DNA of 64,000 nt from Nitrosopumilus sp. GTDB lineage: Archaea; Thermoproteota; Nitrososphaeria; Nitrososphaerales; Nitrosopumilaceae. Below the pieces are notes generated by a model. The model saw only the letters and a list, made by a program, of their open reading frames with translations, made no database searches and was not told where the DNA came from. This document shows positions 14,725 through 61,617 of this stretch, in pieces. Numbering within the stretch: position 1 is the stretch's first letter; each line of letters opens with the position of its first letter. The DNA lies in the NCBI GenBank assembly GCA_965223425.1, contig OZ245003.1, positions 1,280,001 through 1,344,000 of the forward strand, given 5' to 3'. Both the position numbers and the translations under genes were made by a program.

Positions 14725-15948
14725 TCATTTCTTTTTTCTAATTTGCTGTACTACCATTGGTAAAAATGCACCCACATCAGATACAATTCCTAGTGCTTGC
14801 CATGTTCCTCTGTCCATAAGTTTTGTAACCGTTGGCTGATTAATGTCTACAGCAATCACTTTCACATTTGCTGGAAGCATATTTCCTGTTGCAATGGAAT
14901 GGAGCATAGTTGAAATCATGATGACCATATTTGCATCTTTTAGTACTTTCTTGTATTCACGTTGCGCTTGAACAACATCGGTAATTACGTCTGGCAATGG
15001 TCCGTCATCTCGAATTGAACCTGCCAACACAAATGGTATCTCGTTTTTTACACATTCGTACATTATTCCTTTTGTCAATTTCTTAGTTTTTACCATGTTG
15101 GCAATAGATCCTGCCTTGAATACTGCATTGACTGTATCCATGTGGTTTCGATGTCCATGATATGCCAATGTGGCATCATGAACATTCATTCCTAGTGAGG
15201 TACCGAGTGTGGCATATTCTATATCGTGAACTGCAAGCGCATTACCTGCCAACACCCCATGAACATAACCCAACTTGATTAGCTCAGATACAGCATCATC
15301 TGCTCCTGTGTGTACTATTGCTGGACCTCCAACAATTACAATTTTTCCACCATTCTTTTTTGTGTTATAGATGTCTTCTGCTACTTTTTTGGCAATATGC
15401 TGGGTTGGTCTTTCACTTGAGCTTGAACTTCCCATGAATTCAAACACATTGACCCCTTCTCGTGGACGCTCAGGTGGAATAATCTTGACTCCTTTTTCTC
15501 CCACTACTATTTGGTCTCCTCTTTTCACATCCCTTACAGGCACACAGAATGCTTTACTTCCCTTTACAACTATACATTTGTCCATCATCATATTTTCCAC
15601 CTGAACCCACTTTCCTCTGTGAAAAACTTGTGTGTGGTTGTTTGTTGTACTGTAAAAATTATCAGGCATTACAAAGTTTTTTATGGATTTTTTTAATACA
15701 ACCTCTTTTTGGATTTTAGATACTGCCCCTTCTCGATAAATTGTTTCAAGAATCTCATCCAGATGTTTTTGGTTTTTTCCATTAACAAGCAATCTTGCGT
15801 AGGATTGATCTTTTTTTCTTCTGCCAATGTTGATTTCTTGTACCTGAAATTCTCCTTTTAGATCCATTATTTTATCAAAGATCTTAGTCAAAATCAAAGA
15901 ATCAATTATGTGGCCACTAACTTCGATCTCTTGAGAATATTTGATCAT
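14725..15948 (-). CDS. TIGR00300 family protein (LOR/SDH-like, ornithine cyclodeaminase-related)
   Basis: 'GHIIDS', 'FYSTTN', 'GNALAVHDIE', 'LAGSIRDDGPLPD', 'MLHSIATGNM'. Confidence 0.85.
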   Translation of the reverse strand: MIKYSQEIEVSGHIIDSLILTKIFDKIMDLKGEFQVQEINIGRRKKDQSYARLLVNGKNQKHLDEILETIYREGAVSKIQKEVVLKKSIKNFVMPDNFYSTTNNHTQVFHRGKWVQVENMMMDKCIVVKGSKAFCVPVRDVKRGDQIVVGEKGVKIIPPERPREGVNVFEFMGSSSSSERPTQHIAKKVAEDIYNTKKNGGKIVIVGGPAIVHTGADDAVSELIKLGYVHGVLAGNALAVHDIEYATLGTSLGMNVHDATLAYHGHRNHMDTVNAVFKAGSIANMVKTKKLTKGIMYECVKNEIPFVLAGSIRDDGPLPDVITDVVQAQREYKKVLKDANMVIMISTMLHSIATGNMLPANVKVIAVDINQPTVTKLMDRGTWQALGIVSDVGAFLPMVVQQIRKKK

Positions 15949-18786: not shown

Positions 18787-18935
18787 GAGGGCATAGTCTA
18801 GAGTGGACAAGGCGTTCAGATTCGCAGCTGTAAGATCGTGTGAATTTCTGACATCAATGCAAATAGAGGAAAACAGGTGGACAAGGCGTTCAGATTCGCA
18901 GCTGTAAGATCAGGGTTTAAATTCTTCTCTCACCA
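18787..18935 (+). pseudogene. degenerate tRNA-like sequence (possibly Arg-TCG) interrupted by a duplication plus insert
   Basis: Removing one repeat plus spacer gives GAGGGCATAGTCTAGAGTGGACAAGGCGTTCAGATTCGCAGCTGTAAGATCAGGGTTTAAATTCTTCTCTCACCA, with D-arm, T-loop-like GGTTTAAAT and CCA. Confidence 0.5.
18803..18911. repeat. repeat-spacer-repeat unit A
   Basis: Identical 35-nt GTGGACAAGGCGTTCAGATTCGCAGCTGTAAGATC at 18803-18837 and 18877-18911, with a 39-nt spacer. Confidence 0.95.
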
Positions 18936-19420: not shown

Positions 19421-20546
19421 GTGAATTGGATTAACAATCGCTCACAAAACAGACAACATTATTCAACCACAAGATCTAGATCCCAGTGTATGGCAGAATC
19501 CGCATGAAATACAACGATTCTGCAATACCGGCAGACAAAAGATTCCTGTCCGGCGTCTCCAGTGTGCGCCTGCGCAGCATGCAAAAAAAGGAGACAGATC
19601 CCAGGGCCGCAGCAAGGCTGCTGGCATATGCCATGCGCAAGGAGGGCATGTCCATACGCCGGATATGCATGGCCCTCAACAGGTCATATTCCACAGTACG
19701 GGGCTGGCTTGTGCGCGCCGCACAGCTTGGCACCTACGGCAGGTACGACATCAAAAACAAAGGCGCGCCAAACAAGCTCGATCCGGAACAGACAAAGCAG
19801 CTGCGCGCAGACCTGCTGGCAGGCCCGCGCAGTTGCGGGTTCGAGTCCGGAGTGTGGACGGCACCGCTGCTGGCCGTACACATCAGAAAAAAGTTCGGCG
19901 TGCAGTATGCCACTGTCAGCATATATGACATACTGCACAGGATGGGCTTTTCGTGCAGAAAGCCGCGTCCAAAGCACCCAAGTCAGCCTCAGAATCAGAG
20001 AAAAAAGAGTTTAAAAAAAAGCAGGGGAGATAATCCGGAGCCATCCAGACCATACGGTGATTACAGTTGATGAGGCCTCCTTTATCATTGGGTGGAATAC
20101 CAAGAACGGGTGGTACCTCAAGGGCAAGCCCGTCACCACTCCAGTCAGCCTGTCGCGCAAAAGGTTCTACTCGTTTGGGGCGCTGTACGACGGCGGCTTT
20201 GACTGCAGGTTCTATGCCAAGGCCAACAGCTACAGCTTTGTGGACATGCTCGGACACCTGCATCTCAAGCACGGCAAGATCATCGTCTTTCTTGATAACG
20301 CATCATACCACAAGTCAAAGATGGTCAATGATTTTGTCGACTCGTATGACGGCGACATAGTCCTTGTTTACTTGCCCGTGTACACCCCGGAGCTGAATAC
20401 CACGGAGGGGCAGTGGAGGCTGTTAAGAAGGGCCACTGCAAACGTGATGTATGAAAGCACAAAGGTGATGAAGGAATCCATATGGACAATGCTGGATAGA
20501 CGTGAGGTCAAGATAACAAGAATGAGCGGTTATTTATCCTAGTCAC
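19421..20546 (+). mobile_element. IS630-family element (ORFs 19486-20070 and 20057-20542)
   Basis: Imperfect IRs GTGAATTGGATTAA / GTGACTAGGATAAA flanked by TA; HTH region, then 'VDEA', 'LDNASYH', 'YTPELN.TE'; slippery TTTAAAAAAAAG plus an apparent extra 1-nt loss near 19980. Confidence 0.9.
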
Positions 20547-20725: not shown

Positions 20726-21364
20726 CTAATTCACAATAATTTTTCGCATAGGAACAGAGCCAAAATCATTTAGTTTTCTATCCTTTCCCTTATGTTTGAC
20801 TTTACGGTAATTAATTTTCTTGTCATCAAACAACCAGTTTTGAACTGCAACATATGCATTTTCTTCAAACAGTATGCAATCTTCCTTGGCATATTTTGAC
20901 ATTCTAGTACATAGATTCACTGGAATGCCATAAACATCGTCTTCAGTGTTTGTTCTAATCTTCCAAAGTGTTCCAGATGCAATAGTAACCTTTGTTCGTA
21001 TTCCATCCCCGTGTTTTTTCAGATTTCTTATTACTTTGATTGCACATTCACATGCAAGTCCTGATCCTTTGAATGTGACCAATATTGCATCTCCAAGTTC
21101 TTTGATAGCAATTCCATTGTTTCTTTCTACAATATTACGGCAGATTTTGTTATGCAATAGCATTTTAGTTATTGCCGCAATAGGATCACACCTCATCAAT
21201 TTTGTTGATCCTTTTAAATCAAAATGAGCTACGCTGAAAGTCTTTCTTTGTTTCTTAGAAAATTTCTTCTTGGTTTTAAGATTAGCAACAAATTTTTTTG
21301 CCTTAACAATTTCATCTTTGCAAGTACAACTACTAGAACAAGTACATTTCTTTTTGGATTGCAT
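20726..21364 (-). CDS. class III adenylate/guanylate cyclase domain protein with Cys-rich N-terminus
   Basis: 'FDLKGST', 'IKELGDAI', 'DVYGIPVNLCTRM'; N-terminal CTCSSSCTC. Confidence 0.85.
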   Translation of the reverse strand: MQSKKKCTCSSSCTCKDEIVKAKKFVANLKTKKKFSKKQRKTFSVAHFDLKGSTKLMRCDPIAAITKMLLHNKICRNIVERNNGIAIKELGDAILVTFKGSGLACECAIKVIRNLKKHGDGIRTKVTIASGTLWKIRTNTEDDVYGIPVNLCTRMSKYAKEDCILFEENAYVAVQNWLFDDKKINYRKVKHKGKDRKLNDFGSVPMRKIIVN

Positions 21365-21368
21365 TTCT

Positions 21369-21656
21369 TTATGCTGACTTTGGTAAGAGATCTATTTGAA
21401 CTCCAAGAGGAGTTTTTAATTTGACTAAATTTTTTATATTTGCAAGATCTCCTTGAATGGCAAGAGAGTACACTTTAAGATCTTTATTATCACAACCACG
21501 TAGATCTGGTTGGTGATTAATTAGACCCTTTTCTTTTATTGGAGTGCCATCAATAATAATATCAAAATTAGAAGAACATTTCCTAATTTTGTTTACAGCA
21601 ATTTTAACATTAGATTCATTATAACCAGTAAATGCTAATTGAATTTGTTTTTGCAT
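21369..21656 (-). CDS. small protein resembling ribosomal uS10 (divergent paralog)
   Basis: 95 aa from ATG 21656 (the longer ORF call runs into IS DNA); pattern MQK.I.L..G.N....AV..I...G.PI ... I.GD...IK.L.....P.GV.I recalls archaeal uS10. Confidence 0.5.
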   Translation of the reverse strand: MQKQIQLAFTGYNESNVKIAVNKIRKCSSNFDIIIDGTPIKEKGLINHQPDLRGCDNKDLKVYSLAIQGDLANIKNLVKLKTPLGVQIDLLPKSA

Positions 21657-21803
21657 TGTATCTTTCACACTTTTATTTTTGATATGTTTAAAGGTAACTA
21701 TTTGGATTTGTGGAGTTGTGTGGGATTTATTTGTAACAATTCGGATTTCTGGAGTGAATTTTGGGGTGCCGAAAGAGATAAAGATCACGGCTAGAACACA
21801 CAT

Positions 21804-23294
21804 GTGATGCCGGCGGAGTTTGATCCTACCCGCGTAGACTGGGACAACCAAGACACAAACTATCTCTTTAAGCATTTCAAATCAGTGTTTGATCAGGAGA
21901 GAAGAGAGAGAAGGTCGTTGGAAGAAAAAGTCAAGCATCAAGGCGACACAATCAAGCAGCAAAATGACACAATCAGGCAGCTGGAAGAAGAGAACAGGCA
22001 GCTAAGGACAGGATCCACAACCCAAAAGCCGGCCAGGAAGGCAAGAAGCTACAATGTGAGAAAATTCAAGGAATATCCGCGGCCAAAAAGCGACAAAAAT
22101 ACCGGGATGCGCGGCAGGGAACAGAAGACTGACATCCCAGTCACAGACCACAGGGACGCAGACATTTCATATTGTCCCGGATGCGGTCTCAGACTTGCAG
22201 ACAGCAGTGGTACCTATTACGACCGCGACATAACAGACATACAGGACGGCAGGGCGCGCCGCATCAGATGGAGCGTGGCGCGCCGCTACTGCAGGAACTG
22301 TAAAACGTCACACTCCGCACGCATACCCGGCACCCTGTCCGGCTCTCAGTATGGAATCACGATAATCTCCCAGGTAGTGCTGATGCGCTGCATGGGAATA
22401 CCGTTTGAAAAGATAACCGACCTATTTGACATGATACACGGGATACAAATCCCGGGTTCAACGCTGGTCTCCATGTGCGAAAAGGCGGCATGCCAGATGA
22501 GGCCAGTCTACGACGGACTGCTTGCAGGGATGATTCACAGGGCCCGTGCCATATGCGGGGACGAGACCGGATGGTTTCTCAACGGACTGCATTACTGGGT
22601 ATGGGTTCTAGTCTCCGCACACGGCGTGATATACCACATATCATCGACGCGCAGCAAGCAGGTGGCAGAGGCACTGGCAGGTGAGTTTGACGGAACTGTA
22701 GTATCAGACTCGTATCTGGCATGGAGTGACGTAGGCCTGCTGCACCAAAAGTGCCTGCTGCACTATTTCAGGGACATGTACAAGACCCTGGAGGAGAACG
22801 GCAGTAACGAGTTTGCCACATTCTTCAGGAGACTGCACGGCATACTCAGGAATGCCATAGACGCACGGGAAAAGTACGACAGTAATGCGGTTCCAGCAGA
22901 CGTCACACAAAGGCTGCAGGACAGGATAGACGCGCTGGCACGGCAGTCATACGACGATGCGGACTGCCGGAGGTACGCAAAAAGGCTCAAAAGGGAGGGG
23001 GATCAGCTGCTGACGTTTCTGGAGCGCGACGTGGAATACCACAACAACAAAAGCGAGAGGGCCCTGAGGATGTTTGCCACCATGCGCAAGGCCAGCTACG
23101 GCAACAGGTCCGAGAAGGGCATATACATCACAGAGACGCTGGCAAGCATATACGCCACATGCAGGATGCGCGGTGCAAACCCGTACAATTTTATCCTGGA
23201 ATACCTTGAGGGCGGCGGCAGCAGCAGAACCGACGGGATTCCCATGGCCTGTCCGGACAAAACTGCGGCAGTCAAAAAGTGTGTCTGTGCCTAA
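21804..23294 (+). CDS. IS66 TnpC transposase
   Basis: Coiled coil, CPGC...CRNC zinc finger, 'GDETGW', 'VSDSY', 'QKCLLH', 'NNKSERALR'. Confidence 0.92.
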   Translation: MMPAEFDPTRVDWDNQDTNYLFKHFKSVFDQERRERRSLEEKVKHQGDTIKQQNDTIRQLEEENRQLRTGSTTQKPARKARSYNVRKFKEYPRPKSDKNTGMRGREQKTDIPVTDHRDADISYCPGCGLRLADSSGTYYDRDITDIQDGRARRIRWSVARRYCRNCKTSHSARIPGTLSGSQYGITIISQVVLMRCMGIPFEKITDLFDMIHGIQIPGSTLVSMCEKAACQMRPVYDGLLAGMIHRARAICGDETGWFLNGLHYWVWVLVSAHGVIYHISSTRSKQVAEALAGEFDGTVVSDSYLAWSDVGLLHQKCLLHYFRDMYKTLEENGSNEFATFFRRLHGILRNAIDAREKYDSNAVPADVTQRLQDRIDALARQSYDDADCRRYAKRLKREGDQLLTFLERDVEYHNNKSERALRMFATMRKASYGNRSEKGIYITETLASIYATCRMRGANPYNFILEYLEGGGSSRTDGIPMACPDKTAAVKKCVCA

Positions 23295-23384
23295 AACGCC
23301 GCAACATCGCGCACACATGTATGGGGCTGAGCGGCGTTTTTGCCGATTTTGAACTGTCACGGTATAACGGGGCGTGATTTGTCT

Positions 23385-23494
23385 GTCAAAATAAATCCCA
23401 CACAACTCCACAAATCCGAATTAACGTTCTTGTCCTTTCTGACCTCTTTGCCACATGGTCAAAATAAATCCCACACAACTCCACAAATCCGAAT
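23385..23494. repeat. repeat-spacer-repeat unit B inside the IS66 right end
   Basis: Identical 37-nt GTCAAAATAAATCCCACACAACTCCACAAATCCGAAT at 23385-23421 and 23458-23494, with a 36-nt spacer. Confidence 0.95.
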
Positions 23495-23500
23495 AGTTAC

Positions 23501-23616
23501 ATTTATTTTGACAGACAAATCACGCCCCGTTATATCGTGACAGTTCAAAATCGGCAAAAACGCCATCCAGCCCCATACCATGTGTTGATGTTGCGGCGTT
23601 TTAAGCACAGACACAT
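23501..23616 (-). mobile_element. remnant right end of an older, inverted IS66 copy (continues at 21693-21732)
   Basis: Imperfect reverse complement of 23281-23396; joins 21693-21732 through the TSD. Confidence 0.85.
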
Positions 23617-23792
23617 TAGACATTATGCACAATTAACATTATAAAATTTTTTGGCATTTCAGAACAAAATAGACATTAGACTTTATGAACAATTGAATCG
23701 TCAAAATTTTTCCGAAAGATTTAGATCCATTTTGATCGCCGCAACAGGTATGGAATCTCCAGAACAGACGATACGCAGACTGCAAAAAGAGC

Positions 23793-23876
23793 TCAAGCAG
23801 AAGGACAGAGCAATCAAGCAGAAGGACAGAGCAATCAAGCAGAAGGACAGAACAATCAAGCAGAAGGACAGAACAA
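23793..23876 (+). repeat. 21-nt tandem repeat x4 encoding (I/L)KQKDR(A/T) heptads
   Basis: TCAAGCAGAAGGACAGA(G/A)CAA repeated in the transposase N-terminus. Confidence 0.9.
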
Positions 23877-25095
23877 TCAGCAAGCACAACAAGATCATCG
23901 GCTCACTTCGCGAGCAGCTAAGACTTGAAGACAGCCTGTGGAACGTAACCGGAGATGCAGACCGCTTAGAGACTGAGACGGCACTGCTGCACATCAGGGA
24001 GGTGATCCACGGCATACTGCACAACAGCGCAAAGCTTGCGGGAATTACCTCGTATGACCTTGACCAGTTTGACTACACCTGCAACGACTTTGTGGTAGAG
24101 TCAAAGAGGCACAGCAAAGACGCGCCGCTCTTTTCAGAGGACGAAACACCGGATCCAGGAAACCGCTGCCTGCCTGGCCGCAGGTCCGTCCTGCTGCTTG
24201 CGCTGTTCCGCAGGCGCTCAAACGTGACACAGGACGCCCTGGGAGTGCTGTTTGATGTTGACCAGTCCACCGTGTGCAGGTACCTCAAGTTTGCAGATTC
24301 CGTGCTGGCAGGGATCCTGCCTACTGCAGACAGGATGACCCGTCTGGTAAAAAAGGCCGAGACATCAGAGCAGCTAGAGCAGCTAATGCCGGACAGAACC
24401 ATCATAATTGACGGCACCGAGGCGGTGCCAAGGCAGCGTCCGCAGGACAGGGATAAAAGAAAAGACACGTACTCTGGCAAAAAGAAGCGCTTTACGATTA
24501 ACACCACCATAACAACAAACAGGGCAGGGCCTGATACCTGCAGCAGGCAGGTCCTTTGAGGGCGGGACGCACGACCTTACCATGATAAGAGAGGATCCGA
24601 TAGACTTTGGCAAGTGGTCTGAATCCATGATGTACAAAAAAGACACCCCGGAAAAGGACAGGATACGGGTACTTGTAGACAAGGGATACCAGGGATGCCA
24701 ATCACTACGCGGGAATAGCACTTGAGATGCCGGAAAAAAAGAAGCCACGGGCGGAGCTGACACAGCAACAAAAGGACTCCAACAAAAGGATCAGTGCCAA
24801 GAGGGTAAAGGTGGAGCACTCCATTGGAAGAATAAAGCAGTGGGCAAGGATGACAGACCCGTACGACGGCACGGTAGAGGAGTTTCACGAGGAGCTGGTT
24901 GTGTGTACCGGCCTTGCGAACTTTGGTTTGCTGTGGGATGCAAAAAGAAAGCGGCCGTCACTTGATTGTTGATGTATGATACGGGGTGCATGATGCACTG
25001 GAATGGTGCGCACACGTGCGCTTGAATTCTCCCGGATCTGTTGAGTGATCGTATATTTTGTGCCAGACGGGGTTATTTTTTGGACCTGTCTTTGC

Positions 25096-25203
25096 ATCTT
25101 GATGGCTTGCGCCGTAGAAAAAAAAATTTGACGTCATTTACAGAGGGGCTGATAGCAGAGGGAGAAAATCCCGATGGCTTGCGCCGTAGAAAAAAAATTT
25201 GAC
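25096..25203. repeat. repeat-spacer-repeat unit C near the IS5-like right end
   Basis: GATGGCTTGCGCCGTAG(A9/A8)TTTGAC at 25101-25132 and 25173-25203; extends to about 37 nt with ATCTT/ATCCC; 35-40 nt spacer. Confidence 0.9.
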
Positions 25204-25338
25204 TGGTCAATTATGCATAATGTCTAGTATGTCATGATTTGACATACTGGACTAAATGATCGCAATTAGGCTTATTTTATAAAAAAATCATTCTACATAA
25301 TCTTTAAAAGTTACCATGACTTTTGATTTTCGACATTC

Positions 25339-25644
25339 ATGGCTAGAAAAAAAGCTGGAAAAAAGGTTGTAAAAAAGACTGGAAAAAAGGTTGTAAAAAA
25401 GACTGTAAAAAAAGCTGGAAAAAAGGTTGTAAAAAAATCACCTACAAAGAAAACGACAGATAAAACAACAAAGAGTAAAACCGCCAAATCAAAAAAGACA
25501 AAAAATAAAAAAATAAAGGATGAGCCCTTTGATGACATGAGTATTGTTATAGTCGATGATGATATTGAAATTGACCAAGAAAAGGTTAACGAAGAAAGAA
25601 GGGCATACCTAGAAGAAGCAAGATCTCAAGAGGCATCTGACTAA
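25339..25644 (+). CDS. Lys-rich histone-H1-like protein with acidic C-terminus
   Basis: Repeated GKKVVKK motifs followed by a D/E-rich tail. Confidence 0.75.
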   Translation: MARKKAGKKVVKKTGKKVVKKTVKKAGKKVVKKSPTKKTTDKTTKSKTAKSKKTKNKKIKDEPFDDMSIVIVDDDIEIDQEKVNEERRAYLEEARSQEASD

Positions 25645-25676
25645 ATCTTTATCAAATCCGACTACATACACTACTC

Positions 25677-25916
25677 ATGCGTGCATTATGTTTAATCATG
25701 GTAAAACCGGGAAAGATTGATTCTGTTGTTCAAATTTTAAAGAAAAAGCGTAAGGTCATAAAACAGATAATGGTAGTCACAGGAAGAGCAGACATTAGTG
25801 TAATTTTACAAGGAAATATTGACGAGCTTAACAATATGGTGATTGATTTTAAAAAAATAAAAGATATTGTTGCTACTGAAACACTAATTGAAGTAGAGGT
25901 GAATCTGGGTTGGTAA
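25677..25916 (+). CDS. Lrp/AsnC ligand-binding domain protein
   Basis: 'VTGRADI' and 'TETLI' RAM-domain pattern. Confidence 0.8.
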   Translation: MRALCLIMVKPGKIDSVVQILKKKRKVIKQIMVVTGRADISVILQGNIDELNNMVIDFKKIKDIVATETLIEVEVNLGW

Positions 25917-26128
25917 GGGCCATAATTTTGGTAAAATCTCCAAAAAAACTCATAGCTGCACGGCTTCGGAGAATTACGTCGATCTCAGATTCCTTTCCAA
26001 CAAGTGGGCAATTTGATGCAGTTGCAATAGTTGATGTTGAACAATTGGTTCAAATTAAAGAAATTGCCAATCAAATCCAAAAAATTAATGGCGTGGAAAG
26101 GACTGAAACTATGATTGAAGTTCAATGA
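25910..26128 (+). CDS. Lrp/AsnC ligand-binding domain protein
   Basis: 'SGQFDAV' and 'GVERTETMI'. Confidence 0.8.
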   Translation: MVRAIILVKSPKKLIAARLRRITSISDSFPTSGQFDAVAIVDVEQLVQIKEIANQIQKINGVERTETMIEVQ

Positions 26129-32707: not shown

Positions 32708-33871
32708 ATGAACCTGATTGCTATGATGGCAAAAATACTTGGAATTATTGGAGGCGGCCAACTTGGAATGATGATTACAGAAGCTGCAAAGACAATGCCT
32801 GAACACATATCAAAAGTCATCGTACTGGATCCAACTGAAGGCTGCCCTGCCGCACAAGTCGGCGCTGAGCAAATTATTGCAGATTTCAAGGACAAGGAGG
32901 CAATCGAGGATTTGGCCAATAAATCAGATATAATCACCTATGAAATTGAGTCTGGCAATAGTGATGTTTTAAAATCTGTTGAAAAAAATGCAGAGATAGA
33001 ACCTTCTCCTGAAACCCTAAAGACTATTCAAGACAAGTTTTTACAAAAGACTTTCTTGTCAGAAAACAGAATCCCGGTTCCAAAGTTTGTTGAAATTGAT
33101 ACAATTGAAGATGTCAAAAATGGACTAAATGACTTTGGATATCCTGCATTACTAAAAGCAAGAAGAGGCGCTTACGATGGCAGAGGTAACTTTAAAATCA
33201 ATTCTGAAAATGAAATCCAAAAAGCGTTTGATTATTTTCAAGGCCAGGCTTTGCTGTTGGAAAAATTTGTTCCGTTTGTCATGGAGGTATCGGTAATCGC
33301 GTCACGAAACACTAAAGGCCAAATTAAGACATATCCGCTAGTTGAAAACATACATGAAGAAAATATTTTACGGGAAACGATAGCTCCGGCCAGAGTTACA
33401 GAAGAAATTACAAGAAAAGCTGAGAAAATTGCCGAGGAAACAATGATGGTTCTCAAGGGTGCGGGAGTTTTTGGAATCGAGATGTTTGTCACTCAAGAAA
33501 ATGACATACTAATTAATGAAATTGCTCCCAGAGTTCACAATTCCGGCCATCACACGCTACAGTCCAGCGAAACATCTCAGTTTGAACAACATTTGCGAGC
33601 AATTTTAGGGTTAGATCTTGGAAGTACAAAACTCATCCACAGCGCAATTATGTACAATATTTTGGGAACAAAAGGGTTTGAAGGTGAATATAGATCGCTT
33701 GATATTTCAAACGACAATTTATTTTTAAAAATGTACGGTAAAAAAATTTCAAAACCATTGAGAAAGATGGGACATCTAAACTTAGTTGGAACGCAGGGGG
33801 AATCCATTGATCAGCTGTTGCAAAAATTAGAGGCCATTAAAGAAAAAACAGTGGTTCAACCTGCTGATTAG
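32708..33871 (+). CDS. purK: N5-CAIR synthetase
   Basis: 'GGGQLGMM', 'YDGRG', 'NEIAPRVHNSGH', 'RKMGH'. Confidence 0.95.
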   Translation: MNLIAMMAKILGIIGGGQLGMMITEAAKTMPEHISKVIVLDPTEGCPAAQVGAEQIIADFKDKEAIEDLANKSDIITYEIESGNSDVLKSVEKNAEIEPSPETLKTIQDKFLQKTFLSENRIPVPKFVEIDTIEDVKNGLNDFGYPALLKARRGAYDGRGNFKINSENEIQKAFDYFQGQALLLEKFVPFVMEVSVIASRNTKGQIKTYPLVENIHEENILRETIAPARVTEEITRKAEKIAEETMMVLKGAGVFGIEMFVTQENDILINEIAPRVHNSGHHTLQSSETSQFEQHLRAILGLDLGSTKLIHSAIMYNILGTKGFEGEYRSLDISNDNLFLKMYGKKISKPLRKMGHLNLVGTQGESIDQLLQKLEAIKEKTVVQPAD

Positions 33872-52922: not shown

Positions 52923-52996
52923 GGGGTTGTCGCCAAATTCACATCAAGCTGCCACCACCGGGGTTGTCGCCAAATTCACATCAAGCTGCCACCACC
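52923..52996. repeat. exact 37-nt tandem duplication of the IS terminus
   Basis: GGGGTTGTCGCCAAATTCACATCAAGCTGCCACCACC at 52923-52959 and 52960-52996. Confidence 0.95.
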
Positions 52997-61214: not shown

Positions 61215-61324
61215 TTGTAGTAGAAAGTTTCCCCTCTTGGTAATTTCTACTTGCCATATCCAGATTTACAGTTCCAGAGGGGGGAGAATTGTAGTAGAAA
61301 GTTTCCCCTCTTGGTAATTTCTAC
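61215..61324. repeat. repeat-spacer-repeat unit D
   Basis: Identical 36-nt TTGTAGTAGAAAGTTTCCCCTCTTGGTAATTTCTAC at 61215-61250 and 61289-61324, with a 38-nt spacer. Confidence 0.95.
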
Positions 61325-61501: not shown

Positions 61502-61617
61502 TGCACGTAACCTTTGATACTCCGCCCGCGGGGGGGGGGGACTCCAACTGCACCTTAAACGTCAGCATGGTCATGGCATGCACGTAACCTTTGATACTCC
61601 GCCCGCGGGGGGGGGGG
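61502..61617. repeat. repeat-spacer-repeat unit E
   Basis: TGCACGTAACCTTTGATACTCCGCCCGC(G11) at 61502-61540 and 61579-61617; 38-nt spacer matches 29740-29777. Confidence 0.95.

Follow-up and report, generated by a model that had tools for sequence, protein, structure and literature searches.

How did the right end of one insertion sequence in a Nitrosopumilus chromosome come to hold two identical 37-nt stretches separated by 36 nt that occur a single time in the genome? The locus lies in a stretch of 64,000 nt (C1 1280001-1344000 of the Nitrosopumilus sp. chromosome), which is called the window below; positions without the prefix C1 are counted from its first letter, and a stroke within a sequence marks a junction. 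The insertion sequence, the repeats at its right end and the elements around it are the following.

21733-23500, + strand: newer copy of an IS66-family element, 1768 bp including an addition of 73 nt, with the ends GTAACAATTCGGATTTCTGGAGT and ACTCCACAAATCCGAATAGTTAC
21804-23294, + strand: transposase ORF (DDE_Tnp_IS66, PF03050), 496 aa, open frame
21725-21732 (left) and 23501-23508 (right): 8-bp target-site duplication ATTTATTT from the insertion of the newer IS66 copy
23385-23421, + strand: repeat copy 1, 37 nt, the inner target duplicate, following TGTCT; junction CT/GTCAAAATAAATCC
23422-23457, + strand: insert, 36 nt, spacer-sized
23458-23494, + strand: repeat copy 2, 37 nt, with the same sequence as copy 1
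23495-23500, + strand: terminal 6 nt of the IS66 element, AGTTAC
21694-21732, - strand: outermost 39 nt of the right end of an older IS66 copy in inverted orientation, with the tip GTAAC...; the empty allele's one 37-mer lies partly in it
23509-23617, - strand: inner part of the same right-end remnant, truncated by an IS5-like element
23618-25225, + strand: IS5-like element (HTH_Tnp_4 + DDE_Tnp_4), with the ends AGACATTATGCA...TGCATAATGTCT

Elements of the IS66 family generate 8-bp target-site duplications and have terminal inverted repeats that start with GTAA. The copy at 21733-23500 belongs to this family by its DDE transposase, its 8-bp duplication and its GTAA-type terminal inverted repeats. 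In a profile search the 496-aa ORF matched PF03050 with an E value of 1.4e-31 (110.4 bits as compared to a cut-off of 23.1), the termini are imperfect inverted repeats which begin with GTAAC and read GTAACAATTCGG... and GTAACTATTCGG..., and matching 8-bp flanks are present at seven of the eight genomic copies of the element. While the DDE_Tnp_IS66 transposase, the 8-bp target duplications and the GTAA ends are thus those of the family, the element differs from it in that it is 1.7 kb long with a single ORF and without separate accessory ORFs, and in that the right end of the window copy bears 73 nt extra. This copy is nested within the inverted right end of the older IS66 copy (21694-21732 and 23509-23617), with which it forms an inverted repeat whose 78-nt arms are 95% complementary (BLAST identity 91.5% over 118 nt). 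An IS630-like ORF pair (HTH plus DDE_3) is located at 19486-20542, and no Rfam family was matched in the region 21000-26000.

The arrangement of the right end as repeat, 36-nt insert, repeat and AGTTAC is exactly that of the original prediction. The 37-nt direct repeat (GTCAAAAT...CCGAAT) shows no mismatch between 23385-23421 and 23458-23494. With up to three mismatches allowed, the window contains two matches to the 37-mer and one to the 36-mer, and as many were found in none of 100 shuffled versions of the window. The boundaries of the unit may also be drawn as a 36-nt duplication and a 37-nt insert, as the T that follows repeat copy 1 fits either description.

What did this end look like before it acquired the additional 73 nt? 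A BLAST search with the IS66 element against the whole genome found seven further copies, six of which are full-length at ~96% identity and one of which is interrupted. In these seven copies and in the older remnant, that is in eight of eight other right ends, a single 37-mer is followed directly by AGTTAC. For the remnant this is seen on rejoining its two pieces, which yield one 37-mer with one mismatch and AGTTAC immediately after it, as had been read from the sequence beforehand. Because all other right ends are single and free of an insert, the 73 nt represent an insertion with exact duplication of a 37-bp target, in agreement with the original prediction; the situation that would have contradicted it, namely 73 nt in all intact copies of the element, is not what the genome contains. 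Repeat copy 2 together with the next 6 nt corresponds to the original 43-nt IS66 end, and because these outer 43 nt are unchanged the terminal inverted repeat of the element has been kept, which likewise had been predicted. Outside of this genome, a search for the exact flanks of the IS66 insert with any 28-45 nt between them gave no match in the species-genome collection, and of 40 relatives just one (G002) contained anything of the IS66 element, namely a fragment of 73% identity.

One could also imagine that the element ancestrally contained two 37-mers 36 nt apart and that the other copies have since been shortened by 73 nt through recombination. Such an exchange between the 37-nt direct repeats would indeed remove one period cleanly, and the window copy, which is ~3.6% divergent from six of the other copies, could represent an old lineage. 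However, the single ends include those of the divergent remnant and of the copy at C1 1757718, which differ in their variants. Point variants among the other IS66 ends comprise CCCCCAC or CCCACAC as well as CCGAAT, CTGAAT or CCAAAT, and because single ends carry different point variants an ancestral repeat would require independent and yet identical losses. Moreover, the two 37-mers of the window copy are identical to one another even at those positions that vary among the other ends, and ~29 unrelated loci with unrelated sequences display the same geometry, many of them with empty paralogues. We regard an ancestral origin of the repeat as very improbable.

The region is a nest of repeats in a chromosome of which 23% is repeated DNA (at least 150 bp at a minimum of 75% identity), and such surroundings might favour an assembly artefact. 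In the public sequencing run X2, however, a 103-nt contig covers 23392-23494 without any difference and thereby spans repeat, insert and repeat, and in run X1 sequencing depth is present over the 36-nt insert. The Logan contigs are short, none spanning the whole stretch, and the runs may include the source sample; the support they lend to the reality of the unit is weak but consistent. Beyond the unit itself, some 30 loci of constant geometry whose inserts come from distant sites would not be created by misassembly, and that the unit is an artefact appears improbable in the extreme.

These other loci emerged from a direct-repeat scan of the genome, which returned two CRISPR arrays and many isolated exact pairs of 34-39 nt that are 34-39 nt apart. 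Isolated exact pairs with periods of 30-400 amounted to 52, of which ~21 have periods of 71-75. A uniform, mismatch-tolerant scan of the periods 45-120 gave 27 pairs at 71-75, a single pair at 77 and another at 78, and 13 over the other 69 periods; its low-complexity filter removed the 23385 unit and a few others, which were restored by hand. The curated table holds 30 loci, of which 18 have repeats without a mismatch and 12 have repeats that differ at 1-6 positions, and leaves out C1 1552041 (period 72), which appears to be a coding repeat, and C1 1104350 (period 78), which lies within a coding tandem repeat. Duplications at the 30 loci measure 34-39 nt (mean 36.4) and inserts 34-40 nt, and the periods are 71 (three loci), 72 (12), 73 (five), 74 (seven), 75 (two) and 77 (one), with a mean of 72.9. 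Five loci fall within the window (at 18803, 23385, 25096, 61215 and 61502). The unit at 25096 is described further below, and the remaining sister units are these.

18803-18911: sister unit with a 35-nt exact repeat and a 39-nt insert, period 74
61215-61324: sister unit with a 36-nt exact repeat and a 38-nt insert derived from C1 1886434-1886468 (35/35); 11 empty paralogues
61502-61617: sister unit with a 39-nt exact repeat and a 38-nt insert from a multicopy element, period 77

When one period was removed in silico and the genome searched with the resulting sequence, empty paralogues were found for 11 units, among them those at C1 2466835 (36 paralogues), C1 105005 (21), window position 61215 (11), C1 1565093 (10) and C1 275655 (five). 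A third repeat copy was not found near any of 31 candidates. As the units thus stop at two repeats, and as the unit repeat differs from the CRISPR repeat, the term mini-array that had been used for the IS66 unit was an overstatement. The window also contains a perfect 37-nt tandem duplication with no insert between its copies (52923-52996), whose length equals that of the unit duplications.

Which activity in the cell would produce insertions of such uniform dimensions? A type I CRISPR-Cas locus is located downstream of the unit (at a distance given as ~34 kb), with its array ~13 kb beyond the end of the window. In this array a 36-nt repeat occurs 74 times without variation, the 73 spacers between its copies measure 34-38 nt and the mean period is 71.3; the repeat reads GTCTAAAAG...ATTGAAAC on the minus strand. 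The array is adjoined by cas4, cas2 and an intact cas1 (331 aa, 208.6 bits as compared to a cut-off of 71.7), followed by cas7, cas5 and cas3. The system appears to be of type I and I-B-like, since the cas7 and cas5 matches indicate I-B, with that of cas7 staying below the NCBIfam subtype cut-off. Its third spacer from the leader (C1 1362329-1362362) is identical to C1 198216-198249 (34/34) and thus self-targeting, which hints at weak interference or at a target site without a PAM. In addition, a broken second cas1, of which a C-terminal piece (model positions 218-283) is left, and a cas2 are found at C1 1379849-1380392, and an orphan array at C1 1682473-1682945 has seven repeats of a different 36 nt, spacers of 35-38 nt and a mean period of 72.7; its repeat begins with ATTTCC after GG (junction GG/AT). 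The broken cas1-cas2 pair and the orphan array are the remains of a second CRISPR system.

With considerable confidence we interpret the unit at 23385-23494 as the scar of an off-target spacer integration by the resident type I (I-B-like) Cas1-Cas2. The target duplication (37 or 36 nt; family mean 36.4) corresponds in length to the resident 36-nt repeat, the insert of 36 nt corresponds to the array spacers of 34-38 nt, cas1 and cas2 are apparently intact in the same genome and accompanied by an intact cas4, empty pre-integration alleles exist in the form of the eight other IS66 right ends, and the 23385 site resembles the leader-repeat junction of the array. Then again, periods average 72.9 nt in the units and 71.3 nt in the array, an excess of ~1.6 nt that speaks against this interpretation. 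With its two repeat copies the unit is not a functional CRISPR array, and as its repeat bears little resemblance to the CRISPR repeat (beyond the GT, 14 of 34 positions are identical) it is presumably not processed into crRNA.

The resemblance of the integration site to the leader-repeat junction deserves closer inspection. The canonical junction is GGACT/GTCTAAAAG, also written GGACT/GTCTAAAAGAAATTC, and the 23385 site reads CTGTCAAAATAAATCC (TGTCT/GTCAAAATAAATCC) as compared to the canonical CTGTCTAAAAGAAATTC. In the chromosome (both strands, ~5 million positions), just 140 sites including this one lie within three edits of the 17-nt junction, and given ~60 unit ends ~0.002 such coincidences are expected by chance, in a test that was made post hoc. 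The extended junction motif is matched by one of the 30 units; across the family, just GT and CT are common. Of the 36 ends of the 18 perfect units, nine have duplications whose 5' terminus is exactly GT (5.2% expected, p 7e-5) and in nine the duplication is preceded by CT; the far end of the duplications shows no motif. A motif at one end only fits with a first attack that is guided by sequence and a second one that is guided by a ruler, in the manner described for Cas1-Cas2 of Pyrococcus furiosus in vitro (PMC6698737). Apart from GT and CT, sites that begin with GT show no more than a marginal similarity to the CRISPR repeat (mean 10.7 vs 9.1 of 34, p 0.06), and an equally junction-like site is present in seven other IS66 ends, all of which are empty.

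Based on these features an event of the following kind may be envisaged. Cas1-Cas2, the proper target of which is the leader-proximal 36-nt repeat, would attack a look-alike site in the IS66 right end and join one 3' end of a prespacer at CT/GTC. The other prespacer end would be joined ~36-37 nt away on the opposite strand, at a distance set by the ruler of the integrase, and repair of the gaps would then duplicate the 36-37-nt target on either side of the 36-nt prespacer. We infer both the identity of the enzyme and the order of the two attacks from sequence.

But could another integrase have acted in the same way, either a casposase or the now-broken second Cas1-Cas2 that is linked to the orphan array? 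The second cas1 fragment and its cas2 are still discernible in the chromosome, and with 72.7 the mean period of the orphan array is nearer to that of the units than is the period of the 74-repeat array. Yet the orphan repeat, which starts with ATTTCC after GG, does not correspond to the observed CT/GT bias, and the 18 units with perfect repeats look recent whereas just a C-terminal piece is left of the second cas1. Casposons in turn produce target duplications of ~14-15 bp, as opposed to the 36 nt found here. We consider it improbable that one of these other integrases is responsible; the extinct second module may have made some (older) units.

If the resident Cas1-Cas2 made the units, from where were the prespacers taken? 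At half of the loci (15 of 30) the insert is a copy of sequence found elsewhere in the chromosome, matching it over 33-38 nt at 94-100% identity. The insert at C1 2466835 is identical to C1 412325-412290 (36/36), the window regions 15643-15676 and 32836-32868 are the sources of the inserts at C1 1271799 and C1 1951916, respectively, and multicopy IS sequence is the source of two inserts. A shared PAM-like flank was not visible by eye among 13 chromosomal sources. In ~9 of 13 cases with an aligned source, the insert is identical to its source except for 1-3 nt at one of its ends, a point that counts against spacer integration.

For the insert at 23422-23457 the search for a source that had been proposed along with the original prediction was carried out and returned none. 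BLAST against the whole genome detected no second copy, viral and metagenome contig collections contain no exact match, 300 further genomes from the same order have no match with up to three mismatches, and there is no phage match, the sole plasmid match being at chance level (E 0.3). Of the foreign 36-nt fragment that had been postulated, the added fragment is thus confirmed and the foreign origin is unproven, as the fragment is sourceless in all searches and half of the sister inserts are self-derived.

The copying of other chromosomal sites would also agree with a templated insertion independent of Cas proteins, in which a template switch during break repair or replication copies 36 nt and duplicates the flank. 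The 1-3 unmatched bases at one spacer end are likewise what untidy repair might leave behind. However, we know of no repair route that gives a fixed duplication of ~36 nt plus a fixed insert of ~36 nt. In addition, the sizes of the units are those of repeat and spacer of the resident array, the GT and CT bias mirrors the leader-repeat junction, and the background at other periods is close to zero. In our view, templated insertion has a slim chance of being the correct explanation. In the 74-repeat array one of 73 spacers is a full self-match, as opposed to 15 of the 30 ectopic inserts. This is what one would expect if spacers against the own genome are eliminated from an array that is expressed and do no harm at other places.

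The units are found in genes as well as in mobile DNA. Periods divisible by three occur at 14 of the 30 loci, and units of period 72 or 75 lie within long open ORFs (436, 281, ~1112 and 411 aa), which hints at a filter that would favour in-frame events. An open ORF of ~1111 aa holds a unit of 75 nt, and its nearest homologue (in the relative G015, 41% identity over the BLASTP alignment) has the repeated peptide block just once and lacks the remainder, which corresponds to an empty site; for the unit-bearing ORF of 436 aa the search for orthologues gave distant paralogues only. The repeated DNA of the chromosome accommodates 14 of 31 candidate units. It includes IS families with tens of copies, and the genome exceeds in size the 46 genomes of the same genus that were listed. 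Seven units are clustered within 27 kb (C1 1704000-1731000) and six are located within the 71 kb before the cas locus, both intervals having been picked after seeing the data. The island at 1.704-1.731 Mb, which probably represents an integrated mobile element and itself supplied two of the inserts of this cluster, encodes ArdC-N, DUF2958, a type ISP restriction-modification enzyme and MazE besides ORFs that are mostly unknown.

Can a unit that has landed in an insertion sequence travel with it? Because the insertion leaves the outer 43 nt intact, the mobility of the IS66 copy is possibly retained, and this copy may still be able to move and to take the unit along. The original prediction held that the IS could spread its new end. 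For this IS66 no such spread was seen, as none of the eight other ends is filled, and it is instead the neighbouring IS5-like family that provides support, with a second unit in the window.

25096-25202, + strand: older unit in the right end of the IS5-like element (repeat 25096-25131, 36-nt insert 25132-25167, repeat 25168-25202)

The right tip of the element lies 23 nt beyond the end of this unit, the repeats of which differ from each other at six positions. IS5-like ends that are filled with a homologous insert exist at three loci, including deletion derivatives near C1 532092 and C1 252320, and the end is empty in three related copies near C1 1966038, C1 1752868 and C1 2260306. The flanks differ among all of these filled and empty copies, and the older unit has thus reached new places either with the IS or via recombination among copies. 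Two IS families in the window thus bear units near their tips, at 6 nt in IS66 and at 23 nt in the IS5-like element. It is conceivable, if rather unlikely, that IS ends which mimic the junction serve as spacer traps and that transposition spreads the units within and potentially between genomes, with Cas1-Cas2 acting also as a sizeable endogenous mutator that writes in-frame insertions of 24-25 codons. If true, this would constitute a natural route for the seeding of new CRISPR-like arrays on mobile DNA.

How do these units relate to systems already described? Mini-CRISPR arrays borne by viruses reportedly have CRISPR repeats of the host's type and would work together with the Cas proteins of the host. 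The Nitrosopumilus unit has in common with such arrays that a repeat-spacer-repeat unit resides on a mobile element, as far as the available text on them tells (PMC6858448), but differs from them in that its repeat is IS sequence and unlike the CRISPR repeat. Closer in kind are the off-target 'neo-CRISPR' units obtained in E. coli over-producing Cas1-Cas2, which according to the texts that cite the work were reported by Nivala, Shipman and Church in 2018 (Nat Microbiol; cited in 10.1101/148544, PMC7054753 and PMC6698737), along with what the citing text calls 'circumstantial evidence' in two other species. Judged by these citing texts, in both cases an insert the size of a spacer lies outside of the CRISPR arrays and is accompanied by a target duplication of repeat length, in a genome that encodes Cas1-Cas2. 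Different from the E. coli events, however, those in Nitrosopumilus are natural, archaeal, of type I (I-B-like) and ~30 in number, often have empty alleles and self-derived inserts, and never extend beyond one spacer. For Pyrococcus furiosus, the accessible part of a study of Cas1-Cas2 in vitro (PMC6698737) reports that off-target sites share features with the repeat and that the leader-repeat junction together with a fixed spacing sets the two points of attack. Compared to these events on plasmids in vitro, as that text presents them, the Nitrosopumilus units are chromosomal scars, and the short CT/GT signal is what most of their sites have in common. Our search of the main texts of openly accessible papers found no natural genome with many such events and none borne by an IS.

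The mechanism as such is already known, and what is new is a natural, archaeal and unusually rich case with carriage by mobile elements. Off-target integration has so far been known mainly from E. coli over-producing Cas1-Cas2 and from work in vitro, and it is represented here by ~30 natural events. These record the sites that were chosen in vivo by a type I (I-B-like) integrase, and they record captures made free of the selection against self-targeting, as is evident from the proportion of self-derived sequences (15 of 30 inserts vs 1 of 73 array spacers). They also record a cost of adaptation, paid in the disruption of genes and IS elements and in in-frame insertions in long open ORFs, and they show how mobile elements can carry such units onward.
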